This document shows, one piece after another, positions 2,912 to 31,434 of a stretch of DNA of 64,000 nucleotides. The notes under the pieces are model-generated. The model was not told where the DNA came from, ran no database searches, and saw only the letters and a program-made list of their open reading frames with translations. A program made the position numbers and the translations under genes. The stretch comes from Opitutales bacterium (GTDB lineage: Bacteria > Verrucomicrobiota > Verrucomicrobiia > Opitutales > T3Sed10-336), in the NCBI GenBank assembly GCA_022565335.1, contig JAIUMY010000002.1, positions 24,395 to 88,394 on the forward strand. Direction: 5' to 3'. The stretch's first letter is position 1; every line of letters starts with the position of its first letter.

Positions 2912-5029
2912 ATGGCACCGCGAAGAGCAATAGCATTTCCAGCCTCCCCCATACCACCTCATAGGCTTTCCCGCGATGAAACTGAATCTGGAAATAACGG
3001 GGCCGCCGAAAATCTTTCTCCGAACGAAGCCCCCCCCCCAAGTTCTCAAGCCCCCATGCATTTTTCGATGGAGACCCTTCAGTTTGCCATCCATGAGGAT
3101 TGGTCCATCTGTTCGTTTTCCCCCGAAGCCCGCAAACAATTTTATGCGGACTTGAATAGGGACCCCCCTCCTTCACGGTCAAAATGGAATTTGCGCGAGT
3201 TATTAGGACGCACCGAACCCGCTTGGCTTAGCGATTTACCGAAATCAGCAGGGACCCTTCTCCAAGGGGACCGTATTTTCCTACCCTGGGATGTTTCCCG
3301 TAAAGCCCATGGAATGGGATGGTCGGTTTATGCCCTGCCATGTGGCAGAGACCTTTTTAGCATAACCCTTACCCCCACCATGTGTCCAAGCGGCGAAGCC
3401 AAACTGGCGGAAAACTCACTCTCCTTCGATGGCGCGGGCATACAGGAAGTTGTGCGCGAACTCTTCCTGCGGACCCAACAGCAGGAAGCCCGCTTTCAGT
3501 TCTTCGTCCGGCACCTGCCGGGGGCTCATTTCAAGCAGGATACTTCGTATCGTTTTACCCTGATCAACTCGGCGCTGGAAGAATTACTGGGGAACGAACC
3601 GCTGCGGGAATTAAGCGAAGAGGGACAGTGGCTGGATTGGGTACATCCAAACGACCACGAAGAGCTTCTGCGGAATCTTAAACGCTGTAAATCAGCGAAC
3701 CTCCCCTCCTCCTGTCGCTTCCGCTTACTTCTTCCGGACGGTGACCGGGTGTTGCACCTGATGGAACTGCGTATTCCAGTGCGCGGAATTGACGGCTCCT
3801 TGAATGGATACGAAGGGCTTTGGCTGGACCTGACCCGTGAGGAGCTGGCCCAACAGCATTTGCAGCATTCCGCCTGGAAAGACAGTTTGGCACAAATCTC
3901 AGGAAGTTTGTCCCATGATTTCAACAATATGCTGACCGGCTTGGTGTCCCTGTCCGAACTGATGATGATGGATCTCAAGGAAACCGATGAACACTATGAA
4001 ATCGCCAGTCTCATCAAAAGCACCACCAATCAAGCCAAGGAACTCAGCGGTCGGATTATTTCCCTAAACCGGGAAGAGCGCGGACGTCCCCAAATGTGCA
4101 ATCTGGCCGAACTGGTTTCCGCGCAGTTGGATTTGATTCGGATCGTCCTCCCTAAGGACACAACCATCAAACTGGACATCCCGGAAGAGGAGTTCCCGGT
4201 GCGCATGGATATGGTGTCGCTGCGACGGATTCTGGTAAATTTCGCGACCAACGCCCGCGATGTCCTGGAATACAAGGGAACCGTAGAGCTTAAGATTCGT
4301 AAGGTTGATTTTTCCACCTACGATTGCTCCTGCCTGGTCTCAAACCATTGCCAACGCAAGGGGGAGGCAGTTGAGTTTGTATTTGCCGACAACGGTCCTG
4401 GCATTCCCCCTGAAATCATCAGCCGGATCTTCGGGGCCTATTTCTCCACCAAAGATTGCACAACCTCTTCAGGCTCTGGTTTGGGACTCTATTGTTTAAC
4501 TCAATTTGCCCGCGACAATCATTTCGATTACGGGGTCCGCACCCAAATGGGCGAAGGGACCGAAATGGTTTTGATCTTCCCCCTGCTTTGCGAAGATGAT
4601 GAGCCAACCGGGGAAAGCGAGGAAGAATTGAATCTGAACGGCTCCTTTGCCGAACCACCGGTGGCCCTCTACGGCGTCTCAAATTCAGCAACAAATGCGG
4701 TTCTTGCCGGCTTGCGGAGGCAGGGAATCGAAATTTGCGAACTCTCCGATGAAACCGATTTGAAAGATTGGGTGGAAAAGCAAACCGAAGTGCCACGAAC
4801 TCTGCTGATGGCCTTCGCCTATCATGATCACAAGAGAGCTCGCCGCACTTGCGAGTCGCTCGAACTCGACGCTCCCGGACTACAGGCTATTCTTTCCCTG
4901 CAGGGGTTGGATCCTGAACATTTCAGTGATTTGATCGGGGAAAAATTTGATTCCCTAATGATGGCAAACGCCAAACCCTCAGCCAATGTGAAAAAGATTG
5001 TGACCCACCTGAATCCCGCGGCCTCATGA
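2912..5029 (+). CDS. Soluble PAS-domain sensor histidine kinase with receiver-like C-terminal tail
   Basis: H-box SHDFNNMLTGL, N-box NFATNARDV, G1 DNGPGI, G2 GSGLGLY. A PAS-like segment lies upstream (WVHPNDHEELL...RFRLLLPDG). No hydrophobic TM span is seen. The true start may be an internal ATG (3056 or 3068). Confidence 0.8.
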   Translation: MAPRRAIAFPASPIPPHRLSRDETESGNNGAAENLSPNEAPPPSSQAPMHFSMETLQFAIHEDWSICSFSPEARKQFYADLNRDPPPSRSKWNLRELLGRTEPAWLSDLPKSAGTLLQGDRIFLPWDVSRKAHGMGWSVYALPCGRDLFSITLTPTMCPSGEAKLAENSLSFDGAGIQEVVRELFLRTQQQEARFQFFVRHLPGAHFKQDTSYRFTLINSALEELLGNEPLRELSEEGQWLDWVHPNDHEELLRNLKRCKSANLPSSCRFRLLLPDGDRVLHLMELRIPVRGIDGSLNGYEGLWLDLTREELAQQHLQHSAWKDSLAQISGSLSHDFNNMLTGLVSLSELMMMDLKETDEHYEIASLIKSTTNQAKELSGRIISLNREERGRPQMCNLAELVSAQLDLIRIVLPKDTTIKLDIPEEEFPVRMDMVSLRRILVNFATNARDVLEYKGTVELKIRKVDFSTYDCSCLVSNHCQRKGEAVEFVFADNGPGIPPEIISRIFGAYFSTKDCTTSSGSGLGLYCLTQFARDNHFDYGVRTQMGEGTEMVLIFPLLCEDDEPTGESEEELNLNGSFAEPPVALYGVSNSATNAVLAGLRRQGIEICELSDETDLKDWVEKQTEVPRTLLMAFAYHDHKRARRTCESLELDAPGLQAILSLQGLDPEHFSDLIGEKFDSLMMANAKPSANVKKIVTHLNPAAS

Positions 5030-11531: not shown

Positions 11532-12128
11532 ATGAATACATTGATCAAATACTGGTATATTCTGGCCATGGCCTTTGTTCTGAGTCTTCTCACGGGCGTG
11601 GGGTTGGTTTTAATACGACAAGATACCTGGATGCCGGAGGAAACCGAACCGGAAGAGCACATCGCTTTGGAAGAGGGCGATTCCAGCTCTTTTCGCGAGT
11701 GGAATTTCGAGGCTAACAAACTGGAGGATCTCCAACTCAAATTGGATGCCCGCCAAGCTGATCTTGACGCTCGTGAAGAATCCCTGGAGCTCCTCCGGGC
11801 GCAGATTCAAACCGAACACAATGAATTGATCTCCCTACGGGAGTCACTGGATGACATGCGCCGAAGCATGGAGCAGGATTTTATCACCATCGAAGAAGAT
11901 GAACGAACAAATCTCCGACGCTTGGCTTCGATCTACTCAGAAGTCAGCCCGGCGGCCGCGGTCAAAGTCTTTAATGGCCTGGATGACGAAACGATAGTAA
12001 AAATTCTCTCCTTAATGCCCACCGAGTCCTCCGCACGGGTTCTCGGGGTGATGGGCGATTCAAATGACCAACAAATCCTGGAAAGAGCGGCCAGATTAAC
12101 CAGCGACCTTAGAAAGGTAAGAGAATAA
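11532..12128 (+). CDS. MgtE_N-like flagellar protein (YlxF/MotE-like)
   Basis: N-terminal TM, coiled coil, then ASIYSEVSPAAAVKVFNGLDDETIVKILSLMPTESSARVLGVM (MgtE-N/FliG-like repeat). Same slot as ylxF between fliJ and fliK in Bacillus-type fla operons. Confidence 0.6.
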   Translation: MNTLIKYWYILAMAFVLSLLTGVGLVLIRQDTWMPEETEPEEHIALEEGDSSSFREWNFEANKLEDLQLKLDARQADLDAREESLELLRAQIQTEHNELISLRESLDDMRRSMEQDFITIEEDERTNLRRLASIYSEVSPAAAVKVFNGLDDETIVKILSLMPTESSARVLGVMGDSNDQQILERAARLTSDLRKVRE

Positions 12129-12129
12129 G

Positions 12130-13707
12130 ATGAATATGATTTTTCCAACGGAATTCGACCGATCTCCTGCCCGCTTCGCCCCTCGCGAACCAAAAGCATC
12201 AGAACCCTCGGGCTCGAAGAAACCTCAAAAAGCCTTTGCCGACCAACTGTCAAGCTGTTGCAAGGACCAAAAAGGCGTTGCCAAGTCGAAGACCGACGCT
12301 AAAGGAGAAACAAAACAGAAGTCCAAAGCGGAGAATTCCCAGACTTCCGAAAAACCCTCTGCGGAGGACTGTCCCGACAAAGAAATTAAAACGGACGAAG
12401 AGTCTGAAAAGGAAAATGGCACGAAAAAAGCTGTGCATAAAGAAATGGCCTTAACCCACATAGTTTTAAATTTTCCCCGGCATAGCCTGGCTTCGGCGGG
12501 CTCAAGCGAATCGCCCCCTAATTTAAGCCCTGTAAGCGGAGATAAAGGGAAAGAGAAAGGGGCCTCAACACAAGTGGAACAGAAGGATCAAAAGACCTCC
12601 ACAGGAAGAACACCACAAAAGAACAAAGGCGAATCGGCAAATATTGCCCACTCTAAAAGTGAAGGCAAAGAGAAAGAGGCCCTGAGATCAAGAACTCAGA
12701 ACGAACCCAGGGTATCTGCGGGAGAAACAACGCCGAAGAGTAAAGGCCAACGGTCAAATTCTGCCCCCTCTAATGGATCCTTCTCTCCGAACGCCCCGAC
12801 AACAAGGGAGGCGGCCTCCGAAAGCACTGCTACCACAGTCAGGAGAATTGTCGTTCCCCCGTCCGGAGACAAACCTACCGCAAGCTCCCAAATCCGCTTG
12901 AACAGAAGCGCTACTTCCGAAGCGGAAACTGCCAATACCAGGCACCCCAAGGATTTTAACCGGCAGCCTAAAATGCCCCGGGCGACCCCTGCCTCCTCCC
13001 CAGGCCCTTCAAATGAAGCCCGTTCGGCCACCGCCAACTCTGCCGTCGTACCTTCAGTGCATGTTGCTGCTCCCACGGCGACCCCCAACCTCGCCCCATT
13101 GAATTTGAGCTCCGCCGAGGCCGAAGCTCCCCGAAATACCACCCAAACAACAATGCAAAGCTCGGGAAGCTTTGGCCAATCCTCCGGCGAGGGTGATCGC
13201 CATCGCGGGGATAGCCACCAATCCTCCACCTTGCTCGGAAACATTTCCGGCCGAATGGATGGGGCAGCTTCTCAAAAAGCCGAAAACATACGGGTCTTCA
13301 TAAGCCAATTGGATTCCGCTCTGCAAACCATGAACCAGGAAAAGAGTAGCAACATCAAACTGCGGATCAGCCTGGAGCGGGGTGAAGTTATAAGGATTCA
13401 ACTTAGCCTGCGTGGTTCAAAACTCAAGACCTCCATCCACACCGAAAGCGATAATGTCCGCCAACTTCTCCGTTCTTCCTGGTCGGAAGTAAGCCGGGCC
13501 CTATCCGCCAAGGGAGTGGAGGCCGAAATGCCGGAGTTTGATGGCGGATCGGAGAATTCCTCCCACAGGGAAAAGAGTTTTGCCGAGCGGACCGAAGCTG
13601 AATTGGCCCAGCTACAAAGAAACGGGAGAACTTCGGATTCGGCTCAGGATTCCCCCAACAAACCCAATGAACTCCGGGATTCCCGGATTTTTTCACGCAT
13701 TGCCTAG
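12130..13707 (+). CDS. fliK: Flagellar hook-length control protein FliK
   Basis: 525 aa. Long S/P/T/K-rich low-complexity region followed by a C-terminal Flg_hook-like block (IKLRISLERGEVIRIQLSLRGSKLKTSIHTES...). Position before flgD supports the call. Confidence 0.75.
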   Translation: MNMIFPTEFDRSPARFAPREPKASEPSGSKKPQKAFADQLSSCCKDQKGVAKSKTDAKGETKQKSKAENSQTSEKPSAEDCPDKEIKTDEESEKENGTKKAVHKEMALTHIVLNFPRHSLASAGSSESPPNLSPVSGDKGKEKGASTQVEQKDQKTSTGRTPQKNKGESANIAHSKSEGKEKEALRSRTQNEPRVSAGETTPKSKGQRSNSAPSNGSFSPNAPTTREAASESTATTVRRIVVPPSGDKPTASSQIRLNRSATSEAETANTRHPKDFNRQPKMPRATPASSPGPSNEARSATANSAVVPSVHVAAPTATPNLAPLNLSSAEAEAPRNTTQTTMQSSGSFGQSSGEGDRHRGDSHQSSTLLGNISGRMDGAASQKAENIRVFISQLDSALQTMNQEKSSNIKLRISLERGEVIRIQLSLRGSKLKTSIHTESDNVRQLLRSSWSEVSRALSAKGVEAEMPEFDGGSENSSHREKSFAERTEAELAQLQRNGRTSDSAQDSPNKPNELRDSRIFSRIA

Positions 13708-13717
13708 GAGAAACATT

Positions 13718-14167
13718 ATGGAAACAAATATCGCCACAATTCAACAACCCACTCCAACCAATACCCTCAGTACGGAGAAATTCCCCAGTCCCAACCAGGA
13801 TCTTAATATGGAGGACTTCTTCAAACTGCTGACCGTCCAATTAACCTCTCAGGATCCTCTCAAACCGATGGACGATACCGAGTTTATCTCTCAGATGACC
13901 GCCTTCAGTAGTCTGGCCGAGTTGGAAAGCATGGGCAAGGACATGAAGGCGCTGCGTCAGGAGCAAAACATGTTTAACGCTCAAATGCTGATCGGCAAGG
14001 AAGTTACCGCAACGACCCGGGACGGTCAAACAATTACCGGTGCAGTGACGCGGGTCGCCCGCGAAAACGGGGAGATGATTCCTTACATTGGTGACACCAG
14101 AGTGGATATGGCAAATATCAAGGAAGTCGCAAAGGCAGAAAAAACATTCTCCCAGGATCAACAATAA
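13718..14167 (+). CDS. flgD: Flagellar hook assembly (cap) protein FlgD
   Basis: MEDFFKLLTVQLTSQDPLKPMDDTEFISQMTAFSSLAE is the FlgD N-terminal signature. Start taken at ATG 13718 (AGGAG 8 nt upstream); the ORF-track extension overlaps fliK. Confidence 0.9.
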   Translation: METNIATIQQPTPTNTLSTEKFPSPNQDLNMEDFFKLLTVQLTSQDPLKPMDDTEFISQMTAFSSLAELESMGKDMKALRQEQNMFNAQMLIGKEVTATTRDGQTITGAVTRVARENGEMIPYIGDTRVDMANIKEVAKAEKTFSQDQQ

Positions 14168-20726: not shown

Positions 20727-22931
20727 ATGGAAAGTAAAACCGAGAACAAGGGTTGGTTCCTGGGCCTGGTAAAAAATGGCGACTACATCCTCGCCGCAGC
20801 CATGTTTGCGGTGGTTATTGTCCTGATTTTACCAGTCCCAAAGGCAATTCTTGACTCCTTGCTCGTCATCAGTGTTGGGACTTCGATTCTGATCCTGCTG
20901 GTTATCATCTATGTCCGGGAGCCCATTCAGCTGACCGTATTTCCGTCTATATTGCTGATAATGACGCTCTACCGACTGGCCCTGAATGTCGCATCGACTC
21001 GTTTAATTCTACTGGATGCCGATGCCGGGCGGGTGATTGAGTCTTTTGGCCAATTTGTTGTCGGCGGCAATTATGTCGTAGGGGCCGTTGTTTTTCTTAT
21101 TCTGGTGTTAGTCAATTTCCTCGTGATCACCAAGGGTGCCGGGCGGATTGCCGAGGTCGCGGCACGCTTCACCCTGGACGCGATGCCAGGCAAGCAAATG
21201 GCTATCGATGCGGAGCTCAATGCGGGCGCGATTGACGAAAAAGAAGCGCAAACAAGACGGGCAAAAGTCCAACAGGAAGCTGATTTTTACGGCAAGATGG
21301 ACGGTGCCAGCAAGTTTGTCCGGGGGGATGCGGTGGCCGGCATTCTGATCACCCTGATCAACATCATTGGCGGCTTGAGCATTGGCATGATGCAGCGGGA
21401 CATGAACCTGGATGAGAGTCTCCGGGTCTATACCCTGCTTTCCATTGGTGATGGACTGGTTTCCCAAATCCCCGCCTTGGTTCTCTCCTTTGCCGCTGGC
21501 CTCCTCATCACCCGGACCTCCGGACGGCAGAATCTGGGGAGCACAATGGCCCGGCAACTCGGGTTCTACCCAAGGGCGCTGGGCATTCTCGGCGGAGTCA
21601 TGTGCTTCATGGCGATACTTCCGGGCATGCCTAAAATACCTTTCCTTTCTTTTGCCGCCATCGCTTTCATTCTTTCGATTTTGATGAAAAAGCGTAAGCT
21701 CGATGCCACCCGTTTTGCCGAAGTTCTGGATGAGGTCGAGGAGAAAGCTGATTCCACCCAGGGAAGTTCGGCAATATCACCTGATCGCCAAGCCTCTTCG
21801 GATAACAGTGGTCAGACGGAACATCCGGGGGAGTCTGGAGACTTGGAAAAAATGTTGGATATTGATACCCTTTCGGTTGAGTTAGGCTACTCCCTCCTGC
21901 GCTTGGCAGATGAGAAGAAAGGCGGCGATTTGGTTGAACGGGTAACGGGCTTGCGCAAAACCTTTGCCAAAGAGGTCGGACTACTTTTGCCCACAGTATC
22001 GCTGCGAGATAATTTCGAACTGGAAGCCAATGATTATTGCTTCCTCCTTCGGGGCAAACCAGTCGCCCGGGGAAGAATCCTACCCAACCGCTCCCTGGCC
22101 ATGAACGTTTCCGGCAGCAAAGCCAAAATTCCCGGAGAAAAAACGAAAGAGCCGGTTTTCGGGCTGGATGCTATATGGGTCGACGAGAACGGTCGCAAAA
22201 TCGCCGAAATGAATGGCTTCACCGTTGTCGATGCGGCCTCGGTCCTATGTACCCATCTATCCGAAACTTTTCGCAGGTACGCGCATGAGATACTGGACCG
22301 GCAAACCGTTCAGCGAATGGTGGATCATACCCGGGCAAAACATCCCGCCCTCATTGAGGAACTCTTCCCGGAAGTCATCTCGACTGGTCTGTTACAAGGT
22401 GTTTTAGCAAACCTTCTACGGGAAAATGTCTCAATCCGCAATTTGAACCTTATTCTGGAAAGCATGGGAGATATGGCGCTTCACTCCAAAAATGTGAACG
22501 ACCTGTCCGAACATGCCCGACGCCGTCTCGCACCCTATATTATCAACCAATATGAGTCCGAGCCCGGAAAGATAAAGGCCATCACCCTCGACCCTCGACT
22601 CGAACAGTATTTGTTGGCCCGAGTACAGCGTACGCAATTCGAAGTAAGCATTAGCCTGGATCCGGGGACCGCGCATGATGTCCTGGGACAATTAACCCGG
22701 TTAATGACGGAAATGAATAATGAAGGGCAAACTCCTTTGATTGTCGTCATGCAAGAGCTTCGCCTGGGATTCAAACGCTTCTTTGAATCGACATTGTCAC
22801 GTTTAGTGGTTATTTCCTATCAAGAGATCCCCCCCAACACTGAAATTGAAAATTATGGCATTGTTCAGGCCCCCGCTTCCATGGAACAGGAAAGGGCCAA
22901 AAACAAGGCAGAAGTTGGAGCTAACGCATGA
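20727..22931 (+). CDS. flhA: Flagellar export gate protein FlhA
   Basis: 734 aa. Conserved FHIPEP-type N-terminal membrane domain (ITKGAGRIAEVAARFTLDAMPGKQMAIDAE) plus a cytoplasmic C-terminal domain. Confidence 0.94.
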   Translation: MESKTENKGWFLGLVKNGDYILAAAMFAVVIVLILPVPKAILDSLLVISVGTSILILLVIIYVREPIQLTVFPSILLIMTLYRLALNVASTRLILLDADAGRVIESFGQFVVGGNYVVGAVVFLILVLVNFLVITKGAGRIAEVAARFTLDAMPGKQMAIDAELNAGAIDEKEAQTRRAKVQQEADFYGKMDGASKFVRGDAVAGILITLINIIGGLSIGMMQRDMNLDESLRVYTLLSIGDGLVSQIPALVLSFAAGLLITRTSGRQNLGSTMARQLGFYPRALGILGGVMCFMAILPGMPKIPFLSFAAIAFILSILMKKRKLDATRFAEVLDEVEEKADSTQGSSAISPDRQASSDNSGQTEHPGESGDLEKMLDIDTLSVELGYSLLRLADEKKGGDLVERVTGLRKTFAKEVGLLLPTVSLRDNFELEANDYCFLLRGKPVARGRILPNRSLAMNVSGSKAKIPGEKTKEPVFGLDAIWVDENGRKIAEMNGFTVVDAASVLCTHLSETFRRYAHEILDRQTVQRMVDHTRAKHPALIEELFPEVISTGLLQGVLANLLRENVSIRNLNLILESMGDMALHSKNVNDLSEHARRRLAPYIINQYESEPGKIKAITLDPRLEQYLLARVQRTQFEVSISLDPGTAHDVLGQLTRLMTEMNNEGQTPLIVVMQELRLGFKRFFESTLSRLVVISYQEIPPNTEIENYGIVQAPASMEQERAKNKAEVGANA

Positions 22932-23947
22932 ACCACGCCGATGACAGTACAATTCGATTTATAGCCAAGTCCGCGCAGGAAGCGGCGGCGATAGTCCGTG
23001 AACGCCTGGGCCCGGAAGGCCGGGTAATTTCTGTCGAACAAATCATGGGCAGTGGACTAAAACGCTTCGTCTCGGCTCCCCGCCTACAGATTGTTGCCAA
23101 GAAAGTCCCGCCGCCGGAGTTTTCATCAAAGACGAAAACCAGCGCCTCCGAACAAGCCGGGCCCGAAGCCCCCGCCCCCTTACCCAACCCCACGACAACT
23201 CGAGCAGGTCATCGGCGCACCCTTTCCTGCCGCTCGCTGCTGCTAAAAGCGGGGTTTTCCTCCAGGCTGATGGCCCGCCTCGAGGGCGCCGAACGCTGGC
23301 GTGAAATTGGTGAGATGGAAGCGGGGGAAGGCCTACCACAGGCCATTGCCTGGCTCCGGCAATATCGCGCTAAGCCAGAGCCTTTGGACGAGAATTCAAC
23401 AATAGCCTTTATCGGCTTCGCCGGGGCCGGCAAGACATCGGCATTACTTAAGTATTTGGCCCGCGAGCTTTTCTTATACAATCGCACCCCAAAAGTTTTG
23501 CAAATGGAGGTTGATAAGCCCCACATGGATAGCGGTCTTTCCCTTTATTGTGATGTTCTGGGGGTACCTTGCTTCGAAGACCCGAGCCAAATTAAAGGAA
23601 CGGGAGCATTGCTAATTGATGTGCCCGGTGTCCCACCTTCAGCAAAAAAGGAGCAGGCCAATTTAGCCGCCGCCCTCAAAGCGATCGGGACAGAGCATCG
23701 CGTCCTGGTGATGAATGCCGCCTACGAAAACCCGGTGTTGGAAAGACACTCCGAACTCGGTCTTGCCTTGGGAGCTACGCACCGGGTATACACCCATCTT
23801 GATGAGCTTGACAATGTCAGCAAGCTCTGGGTCGGCGTGCTCGACCCGAAGTGCCCCACCCTCTTTTTCTCCAATGGTCAAAATATGGTTGGCAATTTGG
23901 TCGAGGACAGCTTCGGCTTTCTAATAGAAAGGACCTTCCCAAGATGA
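22928..23947 (+). CDS. flhF: Flagellar SRP-type GTPase FlhF
   Basis: G1 FIGFAGAGKTS, G3 LLIDVPG, G4-like THLDE. Position after flhA and ATGA overlap with the flhA stop support the call. Confidence 0.85.
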   Translation: MNHADDSTIRFIAKSAQEAAAIVRERLGPEGRVISVEQIMGSGLKRFVSAPRLQIVAKKVPPPEFSSKTKTSASEQAGPEAPAPLPNPTTTRAGHRRTLSCRSLLLKAGFSSRLMARLEGAERWREIGEMEAGEGLPQAIAWLRQYRAKPEPLDENSTIAFIGFAGAGKTSALLKYLARELFLYNRTPKVLQMEVDKPHMDSGLSLYCDVLGVPCFEDPSQIKGTGALLIDVPGVPPSAKKEQANLAAALKAIGTEHRVLVMNAAYENPVLERHSELGLALGATHRVYTHLDELDNVSKLWVGVLDPKCPTLFFSNGQNMVGNLVEDSFGFLIERTFPR

Positions 23948-24189
23948 ACCGTTACTTTTTTATCGGAGGATTCCTCGGGTTTACACTGTTGTTCGCGATC
24001 TCCATTTACTCGGGAGCAAGCATCCATGTGGTCTTAAGAAACGCGATGGTCGGATGCCTCCTTTTCGCATTTTTTTTCCATTATTATATCAACCGTGTGG
24101 CGCAAATTTATCTGGAATCCCGCTTGCGCCTAATGGAAGAAGCACGGCAGCAAGAACGCGAAAGACAAAAGGAGGAACCAAAGTCATGA
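23944..24189 (+). CDS. 81-aa two-TM protein with charged C-terminal helix, uncharacterised (occupies the usual flhG slot)
   Basis: MNRYFFIGGFLGFTLLFAISIY...MVGCLLFAFFFHYYI...ESRLRLMEEARQQERERQKEEPKS. ATGA overlaps with the flhF stop and with the fliA start. The ORF-track upstream extension overlaps flhF. Confidence 0.6.
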   Translation: MNRYFFIGGFLGFTLLFAISIYSGASIHVVLRNAMVGCLLFAFFFHYYINRVAQIYLESRLRLMEEARQQERERQKEEPKS

Positions 24190-24977
24190 GCGGCGAAGCA
24201 ACAGCCAAACAGATCAGCGATGCCTATTCCAATGCCAAGCGTTCAGAACCAAAAGTGCAGGAGCGCATGAAGGCTTATGCCCTTAAATATTTACCGATCG
24301 TTAAAAGCGAAGTGCTGCGATTCAAAATGCGAGTTCCCAAACATATCGAATTCGAGGAATTACACGGGGTTGCCATATGCGGATTGATGCGCGCCTTCGA
24401 GCGCTACCAGGAAGGAGACGAACGCTTTGGGATCTATGTCCGGCAACGGGTTCGGGGCGCCATCCTCGACGAACTTCGCAGCCTCGACACCATGTCGCGG
24501 ACGATCCGCAAAAAAGCGCGGCGCTACGACGAAGCAATCCAAAAGGTCGAGCAGCGGGAGGGACGAATCGCCACGGAAGACGAGATTCGCAATGAACTGG
24601 GCCTCGGCCCCAAAGACTTCGATAACCTTCTGGACCAACTTCGGCCGGTCACTTTTTTCTCCTTGGACGATGTCAATAGCGAATCGGATTCCGCAGCCCT
24701 GGCCGAGCGAGTCGAGGATCAAAAAACCCCCTCTGCAGTGGAGTCTTTGGAATCACAGGAATTGTTTACCCTCATTCGAGAACGACTCGAACTCCTGCCG
24801 GAAAAACAAAAAAAGATTTTACATATGTATTATTTCAAAGACTTTAGACTTGCGGAAATCGCACAAGTCTTTAACATTTCGGAAAGTCGAGCTTGTCAAT
24901 TACATGTACAAGGGGTACGATTTTTAAAAGCTGCGCTCAGCAAACAAATGCGATCTGAAAACCCTACTCCTAGATAG
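24186..24977 (+). CDS. fliA: Flagellar sigma factor FliA (sigma-28 family)
   Basis: Sigma-70 regions 2-4 (YLPIVKSEVLRF..., RLAEIAQVFNISESRACQLHVQGVRFLK). Start chosen at the ATGA overlap (M45 of the ORF-track frame). Confidence 0.88.
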   Translation: MSGEATAKQISDAYSNAKRSEPKVQERMKAYALKYLPIVKSEVLRFKMRVPKHIEFEELHGVAICGLMRAFERYQEGDERFGIYVRQRVRGAILDELRSLDTMSRTIRKKARRYDEAIQKVEQREGRIATEDEIRNELGLGPKDFDNLLDQLRPVTFFSLDDVNSESDSAALAERVEDQKTPSAVESLESQELFTLIRERLELLPEKQKKILHMYYFKDFRLAEIAQVFNISESRACQLHVQGVRFLKAALSKQMRSENPTPR

Positions 24978-24979
24978 TT

Positions 24980-25846
24980 ATGATATTACTGATTGGATAT
25001 ATTATCGTAATTGGCTCCGTTGTGCTCGGTTTACATATTGGTGGCTCGAACATAATGGTCCTGGCTCACTTAAATGAGTTTGTTGTGGTTTTGGGAATTT
25101 GTTTTGGGGTCATGGTGATTGCCAGTCCATTCGCTGTACTGAAGGCCATTTTTGTTAAAACAATCGATGCTTTTAAGGGCGGTTCAATCAAAAAAGATGC
25201 CCATATGGAAGCACTGCAAATGCTTTATCAATTCTTCATGCTTGCGAGGAAAGATGGTTTACTTGCGTTGGAAGAGCATATTTCCGACATCAAACAAAGC
25301 TCCATTGCGAGTCAATACCCCACCTTCGTAAATAATGAGAACGCCGTAAACTTTCTGGTGGACTCACTCCGGCCCATTGTTGACGGCCGGATAAAACCTG
25401 AGGATATGCAGGAGTTGGTTGATGCCGAGATTCGCTCCCTTAGCGGAGAAAATGCCGAACCAATCCATGTCATGAGATTGGTCGGAGATTCATTTCCCGG
25501 CATCGGAATTTGCGCGGCGGTCCTCGGAATCATTCTAACCATGGGCAATATTGCCGAAGGCGCCGAAACCGTCGGCTACAAGGTCGCGGCCGCACTAACC
25601 GGAACCTTCCTGGGAGTGTACGGTGCCTATGGTTTCGTAAATCCACTGACCATAGTCATGGAGACCAACAATGGTTCCGAGGAACGCTACTATAAACTCC
25701 TCGGGCAGTCGATTGTTAGCTTTACCAACGGCATGGCACCGCTGATGGCCGTGGAAATCGGACGAAGAACCCTTCTACCCGGAGAACGCCCCGGCTCAGA
25801 CGAAATGGAAGAAACTCTGAAAAAAATAGGAAAGGGGGATAGTTAA
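24980..25846 (+). CDS. motA: Flagellar stator protein MotA
   Basis: 288 aa, MotA/TolQ/ExbB channel family (GDSFPGIGICAAVLGIILTMG..., TGTFLGVYGAYGFVNPL). Directly precedes motB. Confidence 0.9.
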   Translation: MILLIGYIIVIGSVVLGLHIGGSNIMVLAHLNEFVVVLGICFGVMVIASPFAVLKAIFVKTIDAFKGGSIKKDAHMEALQMLYQFFMLARKDGLLALEEHISDIKQSSIASQYPTFVNNENAVNFLVDSLRPIVDGRIKPEDMQELVDAEIRSLSGENAEPIHVMRLVGDSFPGIGICAAVLGIILTMGNIAEGAETVGYKVAAALTGTFLGVYGAYGFVNPLTIVMETNNGSEERYYKLLGQSIVSFTNGMAPLMAVEIGRRTLLPGERPGSDEMEETLKKIGKGDS

Positions 25847-25848
25847 TC

Positions 25849-26661
25849 ATGGCAGCTGGTGGTGGTGGCGCATGGAAGGTCGCGGCAGCCGACTTTTTTA
25901 CTGCTATGATGGCACTCTTCATGGTTTTGTGGATTTTAGGCTCCGAACAAGAGATGCTAGAACAATTACAGGAGTATTTCCGCAATCCTCCCAGCCCCTT
26001 CACCGAGCGGTCCGGCAAGTTCCCAGTGGAAATGGGGGATTTTTCCGGACGCAGCGCTACGGATGCGGAAGAGGCTTTTTTTGACCGGATTGACCCTATC
26101 ATTCTGAAAGGTATCGTTAATGAATTTAATCGAATTCTGCAAATGGAGGCAACACAGGATGAGGTTCCCCCAGTCGATATCACCATTACCTCCGATGGTC
26201 TTCGGGTCTCCCTTTTTGATCGCAAGGACACTGCCCTGTTTCAAGCCAACCATACCGAGCTAACCCCTTGGGCAAATTTCGTGACCCAAAATCTGGCTTG
26301 GTTGATATCCCGCTATCCTTTTGAAATAATTGTTGAAAGCTACACCTCGGAAACCCCTGCCGAAGAAAGTGACCTTATGCAGCCCGGCGATACCGCTTGG
26401 GAACTTTCCACCCGACGCGGCAACATTTTCCGCCAACGGTTGCAATTCTACGCCAATGAACAGTTGAATTTTCGTTCGGTCGTTGGCTACGGACCCGATT
26501 CTTCTTTTTCCGAACAAGAAATTGCCCGAGGAAAAAGCAACCAGCGGATCGTTTTGTCTCTTTCTCTCGCCAATCCCCAACAACTACCAGACTTTTCCGA
26601 GGTAGGCGATGACTTGCGGGGGCCCGAGATTACCCCGCCAGAGGAGCTAAACGAACAATGA
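25849..26661 (+). CDS. motB: Flagellar stator protein MotB
   Basis: N-terminus AWKVAAADFFTAMMALFMVLW carries the conserved Asp in the TM segment. C-terminal OmpA-like region (AWELSTRRGNIFRQ). Confidence 0.88.
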   Translation: MAAGGGGAWKVAAADFFTAMMALFMVLWILGSEQEMLEQLQEYFRNPPSPFTERSGKFPVEMGDFSGRSATDAEEAFFDRIDPIILKGIVNEFNRILQMEATQDEVPPVDITITSDGLRVSLFDRKDTALFQANHTELTPWANFVTQNLAWLISRYPFEIIVESYTSETPAEESDLMQPGDTAWELSTRRGNIFRQRLQFYANEQLNFRSVVGYGPDSSFSEQEIARGKSNQRIVLSLSLANPQQLPDFSEVGDDLRGPEITPPEELNEQ

Positions 26662-26909
26662 GCCAATCGACCGGTAAAAATTTCCCGAAGGAACAGAGTA
26701 ACCTTGCCAAACCCTCTGAGTTCCAACCATACGCCACCGCGCTAAAGATTCAGCAAGGTAAAAATTCAGCCAAATCCGGGGGCCCTGAAGAGGACTCAGG
26801 AAAGAAAAAACCTAAGGTTCAAGTCGTTGATGAAGATGGTATTGTGAAAAAAATACGGGTCACATGTTCGTGCGGAGAACTCATAGAAATCGATTGTTCA
26901 TATGATTAA
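26658..26909 (+). CDS. 83-aa hydrophilic protein with C-terminal CxC-x8-C motif, uncharacterised
   Basis: ATGA overlap with the motB stop. Disordered K/E/S/G-rich N-terminal part, then VVDEDGIVKKIRVTCSCGELIEIDCSYD. No family is recognised from memory. Confidence 0.5.
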   Translation: MSQSTGKNFPKEQSNLAKPSEFQPYATALKIQQGKNSAKSGGPEEDSGKKKPKVQVVDEDGIVKKIRVTCSCGELIEIDCSYD

Positions 26910-31080: not shown

Positions 31081-31434
31081 ATGGACATCGGAAATATATC
31101 TTTGCTCCATGCAGCTGAAGCAGATGCTTCCCTATTCTCAAAGACGGGAACCAAGGCCAAGGATGCCCGCGAACTCAAGGCTACTACAGAACAATTTGAA
31201 GCCATTCTTATTCGCCAGTACCTCAGTGAAGCCATGAAGCCACTTTTCACCGATTCCATGATGGGCCAAACCTCCGGCGCCCATGCCTACCAGTACATGA
31301 TAACCGATGCCCTGGCCTCCGAACTTTCAAAGAGCAGCACCTTTGGGATCGCCTCCCTGCTTCAAATGGAACTGACACAGGGAGAGAACTCCAGCACCAC
31401 AAACACGGTAAACCCTAAGACTAATGACCAATAA
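31081..31434 (+). CDS. flgJ: FlgJ-type rod-binding protein (N-terminal domain only, no hydrolase domain)
   Basis: 117 aa. TEQFEAILIRQYLSEAMKPLF is the Rod-binding motif. Position after flgI supports the call. Confidence 0.75.
   Translation: MDIGNISLLHAAEADASLFSKTGTKAKDARELKATTEQFEAILIRQYLSEAMKPLFTDSMMGQTSGAHAYQYMITDALASELSKSSTFGIASLLQMELTQGENSSTTNTVNPKTNDQ

Follow-up and report, generated by a model that had tools for sequence, protein, structure and literature searches.

What occupies the slot between flhF and fliA in the flagellar cluster of an Opitutales bacterium, if not the MinD-type ATPase gene flhG? In the 64-kb stretch of DNA analysed here, which at its whole length we call the window, this slot holds an open reading frame (ORF) of 81 amino acids (aa). 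An earlier note on this DNA had described two hydrophobic helices, a charged tail and ATGA overlaps at both ends of the ORF, exactly as we find them in the sequence and in the ORF list, and had proposed that the product replaces FlhG and may be a novel membrane partner or regulator of FlhF or FliA. Our results suggest another identity. From its sequence, position and architecture, the 81-aa protein is probably a short, divergent verrucomicrobial homologue of the flagellar protein FlgV, of the Type-1-like kind. Its translation is MNRYFFIGGFLGFTLLFAISIYSGASIHVVLRNAMVGCLLFAFFFHYYINRVAQIYLESRLRLMEEARQQERERQKEEPKS, which includes both hydrophobic helices and the charged tail, and its features are the following.

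23944..24189, + strand: flgV-like gene, 81 aa plus stop; called from the ORF, its overlaps, homologues in the same slot, purifying selection, and family hidden Markov model (HMM) matches in the flhG-X-fliA slot
23953..24009, + strand: transmembrane (TM) helix 1, aa 4-22, YFFIGGFLGFTLLFAISIY; helix 3-22 in the AlphaFold 2 (AF2) model, with the near-invariant GGFxGF that includes GxxxG
24025..24090, + strand: TM helix 2, approximately aa 28-49, inside AF2 helix 27-77; Arg32 near the predicted periplasmic start (VLRNAMVGC), polar His46 near the predicted cytoplasmic end
24091..24186, + strand: charged, putatively cytoplasmic tail, aa 50-81; predicted helical continuation of TM2, poorly conserved in sequence and length in the family
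23929..23933, + strand: Shine-Dalgarno-like AAGGA, 10 nucleotides 5' of the ORF start, within the 3' end of flhF; read from the sequence
24169-24175, + strand: Shine-Dalgarno-like AAGGAGG, 10 nucleotides 5' of the fliA start

The ATG of the ORF (23944-23946) overlaps the TGA stop of the flhF-like gene (23945-23947), and its own TGA stop (24187-24189) overlaps the ATG of fliA (24186-24188), in both cases as ATGA. No promoter- or terminator-like site above chance was detected between flhF, the 81-aa ORF and fliA. The flgV-like gene is predicted to be co-transcribed and translationally coupled with flhF on its 5' side and with fliA on its 3' side, so that the flgV-like protein would be made together with FlhF and sigma-28.

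Many spurious ORFs of approximately 81 aa are present in the window, and since an ORF of this size is not beyond chance, the reality of the gene rests on its conservation. Four near relatives of the product were found in public assemblies, with 62-100% identity, the closest genome being an Opitutales (Verrucomicrobiota) metagenome-assembled genome (MAG). The homologues in L001 and L002, which are the contigs of two of these four relatives, and in L003 (CALKBZ010000040.1, an Opitutales MAG) are 52-83% identical in aa sequence; they occupy the same slot and keep the same overlaps of the flhF stop with the start and of the stop with the fliA start. L003 uses an ATG start codon, L001 and L002 a GTG. 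Differences from the window sequence are dominated by third codon positions (19, 12 and 48 at the first, second and third positions, respectively). Synonymous divergence (dS) is saturated and nonsynonymous divergence (dN) is 0.20-0.41 against the window, while dN/dS is 0.22 between L001 and L002. Because the slot and the overlaps are conserved, third positions are biased and dN/dS is well below 1, the comparison of these sequences indicates that the 81-aa ORF is a real gene under purifying selection. In this respect the earlier proposal of a translated, two-TM, tightly coupled flagellar gene gains support from the conservation, the selection, the Shine-Dalgarno-like motifs and the overlaps.

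The gene also belongs to a wider family. A profile built from the four proteins was run against 1.84 billion proteins and picked out 46 cluster representatives (E < 1e-3), and a broader family profile (A3) gave 117 cluster matches. All matches are short and unannotated (53-191 aa, nearly all 70-130 aa, with two TMs). One 191-aa match carries PF02632, the others have no Pfam family, and the source names of the members are uninformative or spurious (YjfL, PTS IIC and ClcA, for example). When the ORF and 48 family members were scanned with Pfam and NCBIfam, only sub-threshold noise came up (Keratin_assoc, DUF3169, DUF350). Across 165 distinct members, the TM1 columns G8 (96%), G9 (98%), F10 (90%), G12 (99%) and F13 (98%) are the signature of the family; in TM2, A34, G37 and C38 reach 88-93%, and position 46 is Arg in 85%, Lys in 7% and His in 4%, His being the residue of the window protein. 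The tail is the least conserved region, both in sequence and in length.

The AF2 model of the product, made with a 48-sequence alignment, has a pLDDT (predicted local distance difference test) score of 78.7 and forms a helical hairpin of helices 3-22 and 27-77. The second helix leaves the membrane and extends as a long charged helix, so that the tail is predicted to be helical and not disordered; this tail (aa 50-81) contains many Arg, Glu, Gln and Lys residues and ends in ...ERERQKEEPKS. The relatives likewise show two hydropathy segments. The product carries one N-terminal Arg, an uncharged loop and a Lys/Arg-rich tail, which by the positive-inside rule suggests that both termini are cytoplasmic, with a short periplasmic loop between the TMs. 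Neither a profile search of the Protein Data Bank (PDB) sequences nor Foldseek with the AF2 model against the PDB returned anything but generic helical hairpins (E >= 0.45).

FlgV is a small protein of two TMs whose gene lies between flhG and fliA (PMC11607428, PMC10655999); it is known as Cj0062c in C. jejuni, HP1033b/HPG27_395 in H. pylori and BB0268 in B. burgdorferi. It was first found in Campylobacter and Helicobacter; the H. pylori protein forms a ring where the MS and C rings meet and is predicted to contact the TM helices of FliF (PMC10655999). BB0268 of B. burgdorferi, earlier mis-annotated as Hfq, is FlgV, and loss of flgV there makes the filaments fewer and shorter (PMC11607428). 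Borrelia keeps FlgV even though it is without sigma-28, and the protein localises to the basal body (PMC11607428). The "Type-1" family covers spirochetes, Bacillota and the PVC clade, with Verrucomicrobia explicitly included (Zamba-Campero et al. 2024, PMC11607428), the verrucomicrobial members being reported at e < 1e-5. Type-1 proteins carry an Arg within TM2 as well as a polar tail, and their gene is always part of the flagellar superoperon, where the FlhF/FlhG module joins the sigma-28 module (PMC11607428). Type-2 FlgV, from Campylobacterota, is without the TM2 arginine (PMC11607428); it is approximately 100 aa long, is encoded directly 5' of fliA and has a GFFxG motif in TM1 (Botting et al. 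2023, PMC10655999), which in the H. pylori protein was proposed as a helix-packing surface (PMC10655999). The slot, the architecture and the TM2 Arg of the window protein match these descriptions, so that it is not new in kind.

The comparison with Type-1 FlgV can be made feature by feature. The two-TM hairpin is also predicted for the window protein, and the TM2 Arg has its counterpart in Arg32, which is invariant among the four closest homologues. An Arg is found at the equivalent TM2 start in metagenomic ORFs from the same slot (L040 IFRSF, L067 LIRAS, L075 LERSV, L064 CKRAM) and in Borreliella (LVRSL), the HMM alignments placing it within one residue either way. The polar residue near the end of TM2 is His46 in the window protein, with Glu54 of Borreliella FlgV at a comparable position, and the polar tail is matched by the unconserved tails of variable length in the window protein and its family. 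The location at the sigma-28 junction is shared, although here the upstream module is without its flhG half. As for Type-2 FlgV, it also has two TMs and a gene directly 5' of fliA; unlike the window gene, it always follows flhG. The TM1 Gly/Phe motif of the window protein, FFIGGFLGF (GGFLG, GxxxG, 96-99% conserved), is similar but not identical to the published Type-2 GFFxG.

To place the family outside its own clade, Joint Genome Institute (JGI) metagenome contigs were scanned with an FlhA alignment, which yielded 80 flagellar loci: about a dozen verrucomicrobia-like (FlhA 49-55% identical) and the rest distant (38-45%). The same FlhA scan of viral contigs found nothing. The positional test covered 67 distant FlhA-anchored metagenome loci, in which the A3 profile (Z = 7250 ORFs) had five matches: L048 (2e-4), L067 (3e-4), L064 (4e-4), L040 (4e-4) and L075 (0.016). 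All five are two-TM ORFs directly 5' of fliA, against none of the 174 other small two-TM ORFs, FliQ included (Fisher p = 1e-6). Moreover, the matches in L040, L067 and L075 sit in flhF-flhG-X-fliA clusters, the slot in which published work places FlgV. FlhF and FlhG of L067, and FlhG of L040 and L075, were verified with Pfam, FlhF being assigned by its canonical G motifs in L040 and by position only in L075. In profile-profile comparisons with A3, hhalign gave probabilities of 91% for L048, 83% for L064, 82% for L040, 44% for L075, 28% for L067 and 27% for L065, with the FliQ controls at or below 10%.

The ORF of L067 links the two sides. Starting from it, jackhmmer recovered the whole verrucomicrobial family, the window ORF included, and in a phmmer search of 7459 sequences its only matches at E < 1 were family members and Borreliella FlgV. 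The latter is 30% identical to it over 47 columns (hhalign probability 25%), with the TM2 Arg and the later Glu in register. For these comparisons most of the bb0268 coding sequence was rebuilt from the synthetic-gene sequence and primers (Supplementary Data 1, PMC11607428) and Borreliella orthologues were then collected; the homologue search with BB0268 returned Borreliella alone, and the Borreliella FlgV profile is therefore narrow. Local iteration gained L075 and L056 with no off-slot false positives, and never reached Borreliella. A three-sequence alignment of the flhG-adjacent ORFs has 14-16% identity, too divergent to serve as a profile.

Several results weigh against the FlgV assignment. 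Compared directly, the family and Borreliella FlgV are not significantly similar (2.2 bits in hmmsearch; hhalign probabilities of 1.3%, 2.9% and 9.3%), although the hhalign alignment is colinear across both TM helices. In the wider verrucomicrobial family only 39% of the members have Arg at position 32, against 47% with Phe. The acidic residue that Type-1 FlgV has where TM2 starts is missing from the window protein (His28, Val29, Asn33); in the family, positions 28-29 are most often Glu or Asp, about 35% each, and 28% of the members have Asp33. Also missing is the short hydrophobic/basic peptide that is conserved at the C-terminus of Type-1 FlgV: Borreliella FlgV terminates in ...VVADAIKTLMSKKE, with the conserved end FIEDNDPKVVADAIKTLMSKKE, and neither the four-protein nor the A3 family alignment has a conserved C-terminal motif. 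The window protein is 81 aa long against 159 aa for Borreliella FlgV, and the TM1 GGFxGF of the window protein and its family is absent in the latter. A3 also misses 9 of the 14 small two-TM ORFs located 5' of fliA in the distant loci, which implies that the fliA-upstream slot holds very diverse sequences. Pfam and NCBIfam have no curated model that would confirm the assignment, and small TM hairpins can match by composition alone, although the FliQ controls argue otherwise here. In sum, at the sequence level the homology runs through transitive, borderline links provided by metagenomic ORFs (L067, L040), and the FlgV link is positional, architectural and transitive, with no clean pairwise match.

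The genomic context bears on the claim that the protein replaces FlhG. The neighbours of the flgV-like gene in the window are these.

20727..22931, + strand: flhA, which anchors the block flhA-(flhF)-X-fliA-motA-motB, a conserved one, on its upstream side
22928..23947, + strand: FlhF-like GTPase of the signal recognition particle (SRP) type, divergent, 339 aa; its stop overlaps the ORF start, and G2, G3 and G4 are degenerate compared with canonical FlhF
24186..24977, + strand: fliA (sigma-28), 263 aa, with Sigma70 r2/r3/r4 domains and a TIGR02479 match of 196 bits, above cut-off; overlaps the ORF stop at its start
24980-25846, + strand: motA; Pfam MotA_N/MotA_ExbB, same order in all related loci
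25849-26661, + strand: motB; Pfam MotB_plug, same order in all related loci

The family member lies directly 5' of fliA-motA-motB in each of the related loci inspected, so that the ORF is conserved in related flagellar clusters, as emerged when the neighbourhoods of its homologues were examined, a check that the earlier note had proposed. What precedes it varies. In the window and in L001-L003, L006-L008, L011, L012, L014, L016-L023 and L030, flhA is followed by a divergent FlhF-like gene, whereas in L004, L005, L009, L010 and the P0173 contig flhA is followed directly by the family member and fliA, with neither flhF nor flhG. FlhG and other MinD/ParA ATPases have a deviant Walker A motif, KGGxGK[ST], and are about 270-300 aa long. 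No such motif and no FlhG-like ORF is present in the whole 64-kb window, which bears out the earlier report of a flhF-fliA slot without a MinD-type gene; phmmer searches with the FlhG of L067, L040 and L075 had no match in the window either, and no MinD-type flhG was found in 250 kb of 24 related loci. In contrast, among 68 more distant FlhA-anchored loci, 39 have a MinD-type gene that adjoins flhF. The small gene is associated with fliA rather than with flhF or flhG, and flhG is truly missing locally. The FlhF/FlhG module appears to be dispensable or relocated in parts of Verrucomicrobiota.

The same junction holds other genes elsewhere. In L033, L037, L041 and L076 (and probably L039), the flhG-fliA slot carries a protein of approximately 210 aa in place of the two-TM FlgV, and from reading the first four of these sequences the proteins look PilZ-type. 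Accessory genes of different kinds make a hot spot of the flhG-fliA junction. On the 3' side of fliA, L067 encodes (12856-13905, + strand) a protein with two TMs that matches DUF6115 and AMIN and may be the "TM + HTH" (helix-turn-helix) member of the sigma-28 sub-module described in PMC11607428.

The FlhF-like protein of the window (22928-23947) matches Pfam SRP54 and TIGR03499 below the curated cut-offs. When the proteins of this clade (relatives in L001-L003, L006-L008, L011-L023 and L030) were aligned with canonical FlhF from flhG-bearing loci, G2 was found to be changed throughout from DTYR to EVDK..PH, G3 from DTAGR to DVPGV, with loss of the Arg, and G4 from TKLDE to THLDE, Lys being replaced by His; in several relatives the P-loop reads GVGRTT, with Lys replaced by Arg. 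By these motifs the FlhF-like protein may be a pseudo-GTPase. Taken together, the degenerate motifs, the absence of flhG and the absence of flhF at sister loci suggest a relaxed or altered FlhF GTPase function after loss of its activator FlhG, the causal link being a conjecture from these sequences.

How do the other explanations of the small gene compare with FlgV homology? The strongest of them, which we still consider unlikely, is that this is a lineage-specific two-TM flagellar protein that resembles FlgV by convergence and has a different role, as an export-gate or stator accessory, for example. The non-significant direct similarity to Borreliella FlgV, the missing C-terminal peptide and acidic residue where TM2 begins, the invariable succession of the gene by fliA-motA-motB, and the nine slot ORFs missed by the profile would all fit such a protein. 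They have to be set against profile matches that are exclusive to the fliA-upstream slot, with negative FliQ controls, a jackhmmer search from L067 that converges back on the family, and the published verrucomicrobial FlgV members at e < 1e-5 (PMC11607428). It is distinctly improbable that the protein is a membrane-anchored regulator of sigma-28, an anti-sigma factor or tether whose charged helix binds FliA and compensates for an apparent lack of flgM, as the earlier note had speculated. Such a role would suit the strict adjacency and translational coupling to fliA in all loci, and no FlgM was recognised among the small ORFs of the window that were scanned (a 117-aa ORF is a weak Rod-binding match and an 83-aa ORF is without family). 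The speculation nevertheless found no positive support. The tail, which should be the sigma-binding part, is the least conserved region, unlike a specific binding surface; flgM may lie outside the 64-kb window; and Borrelia retains FlgV at its basal body without sigma-28 (PMC11607428). FlgM, the anti-sigma-28 factor, is also small and linked to the sigma-28 regulon, and is soluble, secreted and intrinsically disordered, whereas the window ORF encodes a membrane-embedded hairpin with a non-conserved tail and has no match to FlgM or an anti-sigma family in Pfam or NCBIfam. We rejected FlgM as its identity since there is no family match and the protein is membrane-embedded.

That the protein replaces FlhG functionally, as a membrane partner of the divergent FlhF that controls flagellar number and placement, is very improbable. 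The idea draws on the lack of flhG both in the window and across the 250 kb of related loci, on the overlap of the ORF start with the flhF stop, and on the loss from FlhF of catalytic residues and of residues related to its GTPase-activating protein (GAP). The window ORF shares with FlhG/FleN/YlxH the flhF-fliA position only: it is without P-loop, ATPase fold, activator helix or FlhG motif, and has no ParA, CbiA or AAA_31 match in Pfam. We rejected the replacement because homologous ORFs coexist with flhF and canonical flhG in L040, L067 and L075, and because the family persists where flhF is absent too (L004, L005, L009, L010). Presence both with FlhG and without FlhF makes the family an independent component tied to fliA, around which flhG was lost. 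Finally, a spurious, untranslated ORF in an overlap or intergenic region, for which the many chance ORFs of similar size in the window could be cited, has a negligible probability; it was rejected on the selection and conservation evidence, with more than 160 distinct sequences, third-position bias, a dN/dS of approximately 0.2, conserved overlaps and a Shine-Dalgarno-like motif.

Returning to FlgV homology, the following picture can be proposed. The protein would be an inner-membrane hairpin with cytoplasmic termini, whose two TMs are linked by a short loop in the periplasm and followed by a charged helix in the cytoplasm. By homology with FlgV of Borrelia and Helicobacter, many copies would assemble in the inner membrane into a ring that encircles the MS ring of FliF at the C-ring junction, and this ring may tune flagellar assembly and filament formation. 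The GxxxG-type motif of TM1 is a plausible helix-packing surface, as was proposed for GFFxG of H. pylori. We infer the ring location, the FliF contact and the assembly role of the window protein from the published FlgV work. In the Opitutales-like lineage, flhG would have been lost from the flagellar cluster, with FlhF degenerating or being lost in parallel, and this loss would have left flgV directly abutting flhF. The FlhG-less context with a degenerate FlhF is a more unusual feature than the flgV-like gene itself. A bolder proposal, which we hold to be a long shot, is that a minimal FlgV-like hairpin and a catalytically degenerate FlhF make up a simplified flagellar placement and number system without a MinD-type ATPase or, in a variant, that the tail acts as a gate for sigma-28 at the basal body.

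It was only in 2023-2024 that FlgV came to be seen as a widespread component of the basal body, and since it has no Pfam or NCBIfam model, genes like the window ORF stay "hypothetical". The verrucomicrobial branch, with its more than 160 distinct sequences, would represent a stripped-down FlgV of a hairpin and a short charged helix, and helps to define the minimal conserved core: GGFxGF in TM1, and Arg/Asn-Ala-x-Ile-Gly-Cys plus a basic residue in TM2. This core could seed a family model. Moreover, a clade that keeps FlgV and FliA, without flhG at the locus and with FlhF degenerate or absent, fits a co-dependence of the FlhF GTPase on FlhG.

Other genes of the window are also worth recording. 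A conserved 83-aa ORF (26658-26909, + strand) overlaps the motB stop, ends in ...CSCGELIEIDCSYD and has no Pfam or NCBIfam match; an ORF of 76-100 aa is found in the same post-motB position in most of the verrucomicrobia-like loci that reach that far. The 117-aa ORF between flgI and flgN (31081-31434, + strand) has a weak match to the Rod-binding family (FlgJ N-terminal, PF10135; E = 5.7e-4), below cut-off. Between fliJ-like and fliK-like genes lies a 198-aa protein (11532-12128, + strand) with an N-terminal TM and a weak MgtE_N match (E = 7.7e-5), reminiscent of FlbB/YlxF-type flagellar-operon proteins. Directly 5' of the flagellar cluster, a PAS/HisKA/HATPase histidine kinase of 705 aa (2912-5029, + strand) adjoins an AAA_16 ATPase of 431 aa in divergent orientation (1239-2534, - strand), and it is possible that these two proteins regulate the flagellar cluster.

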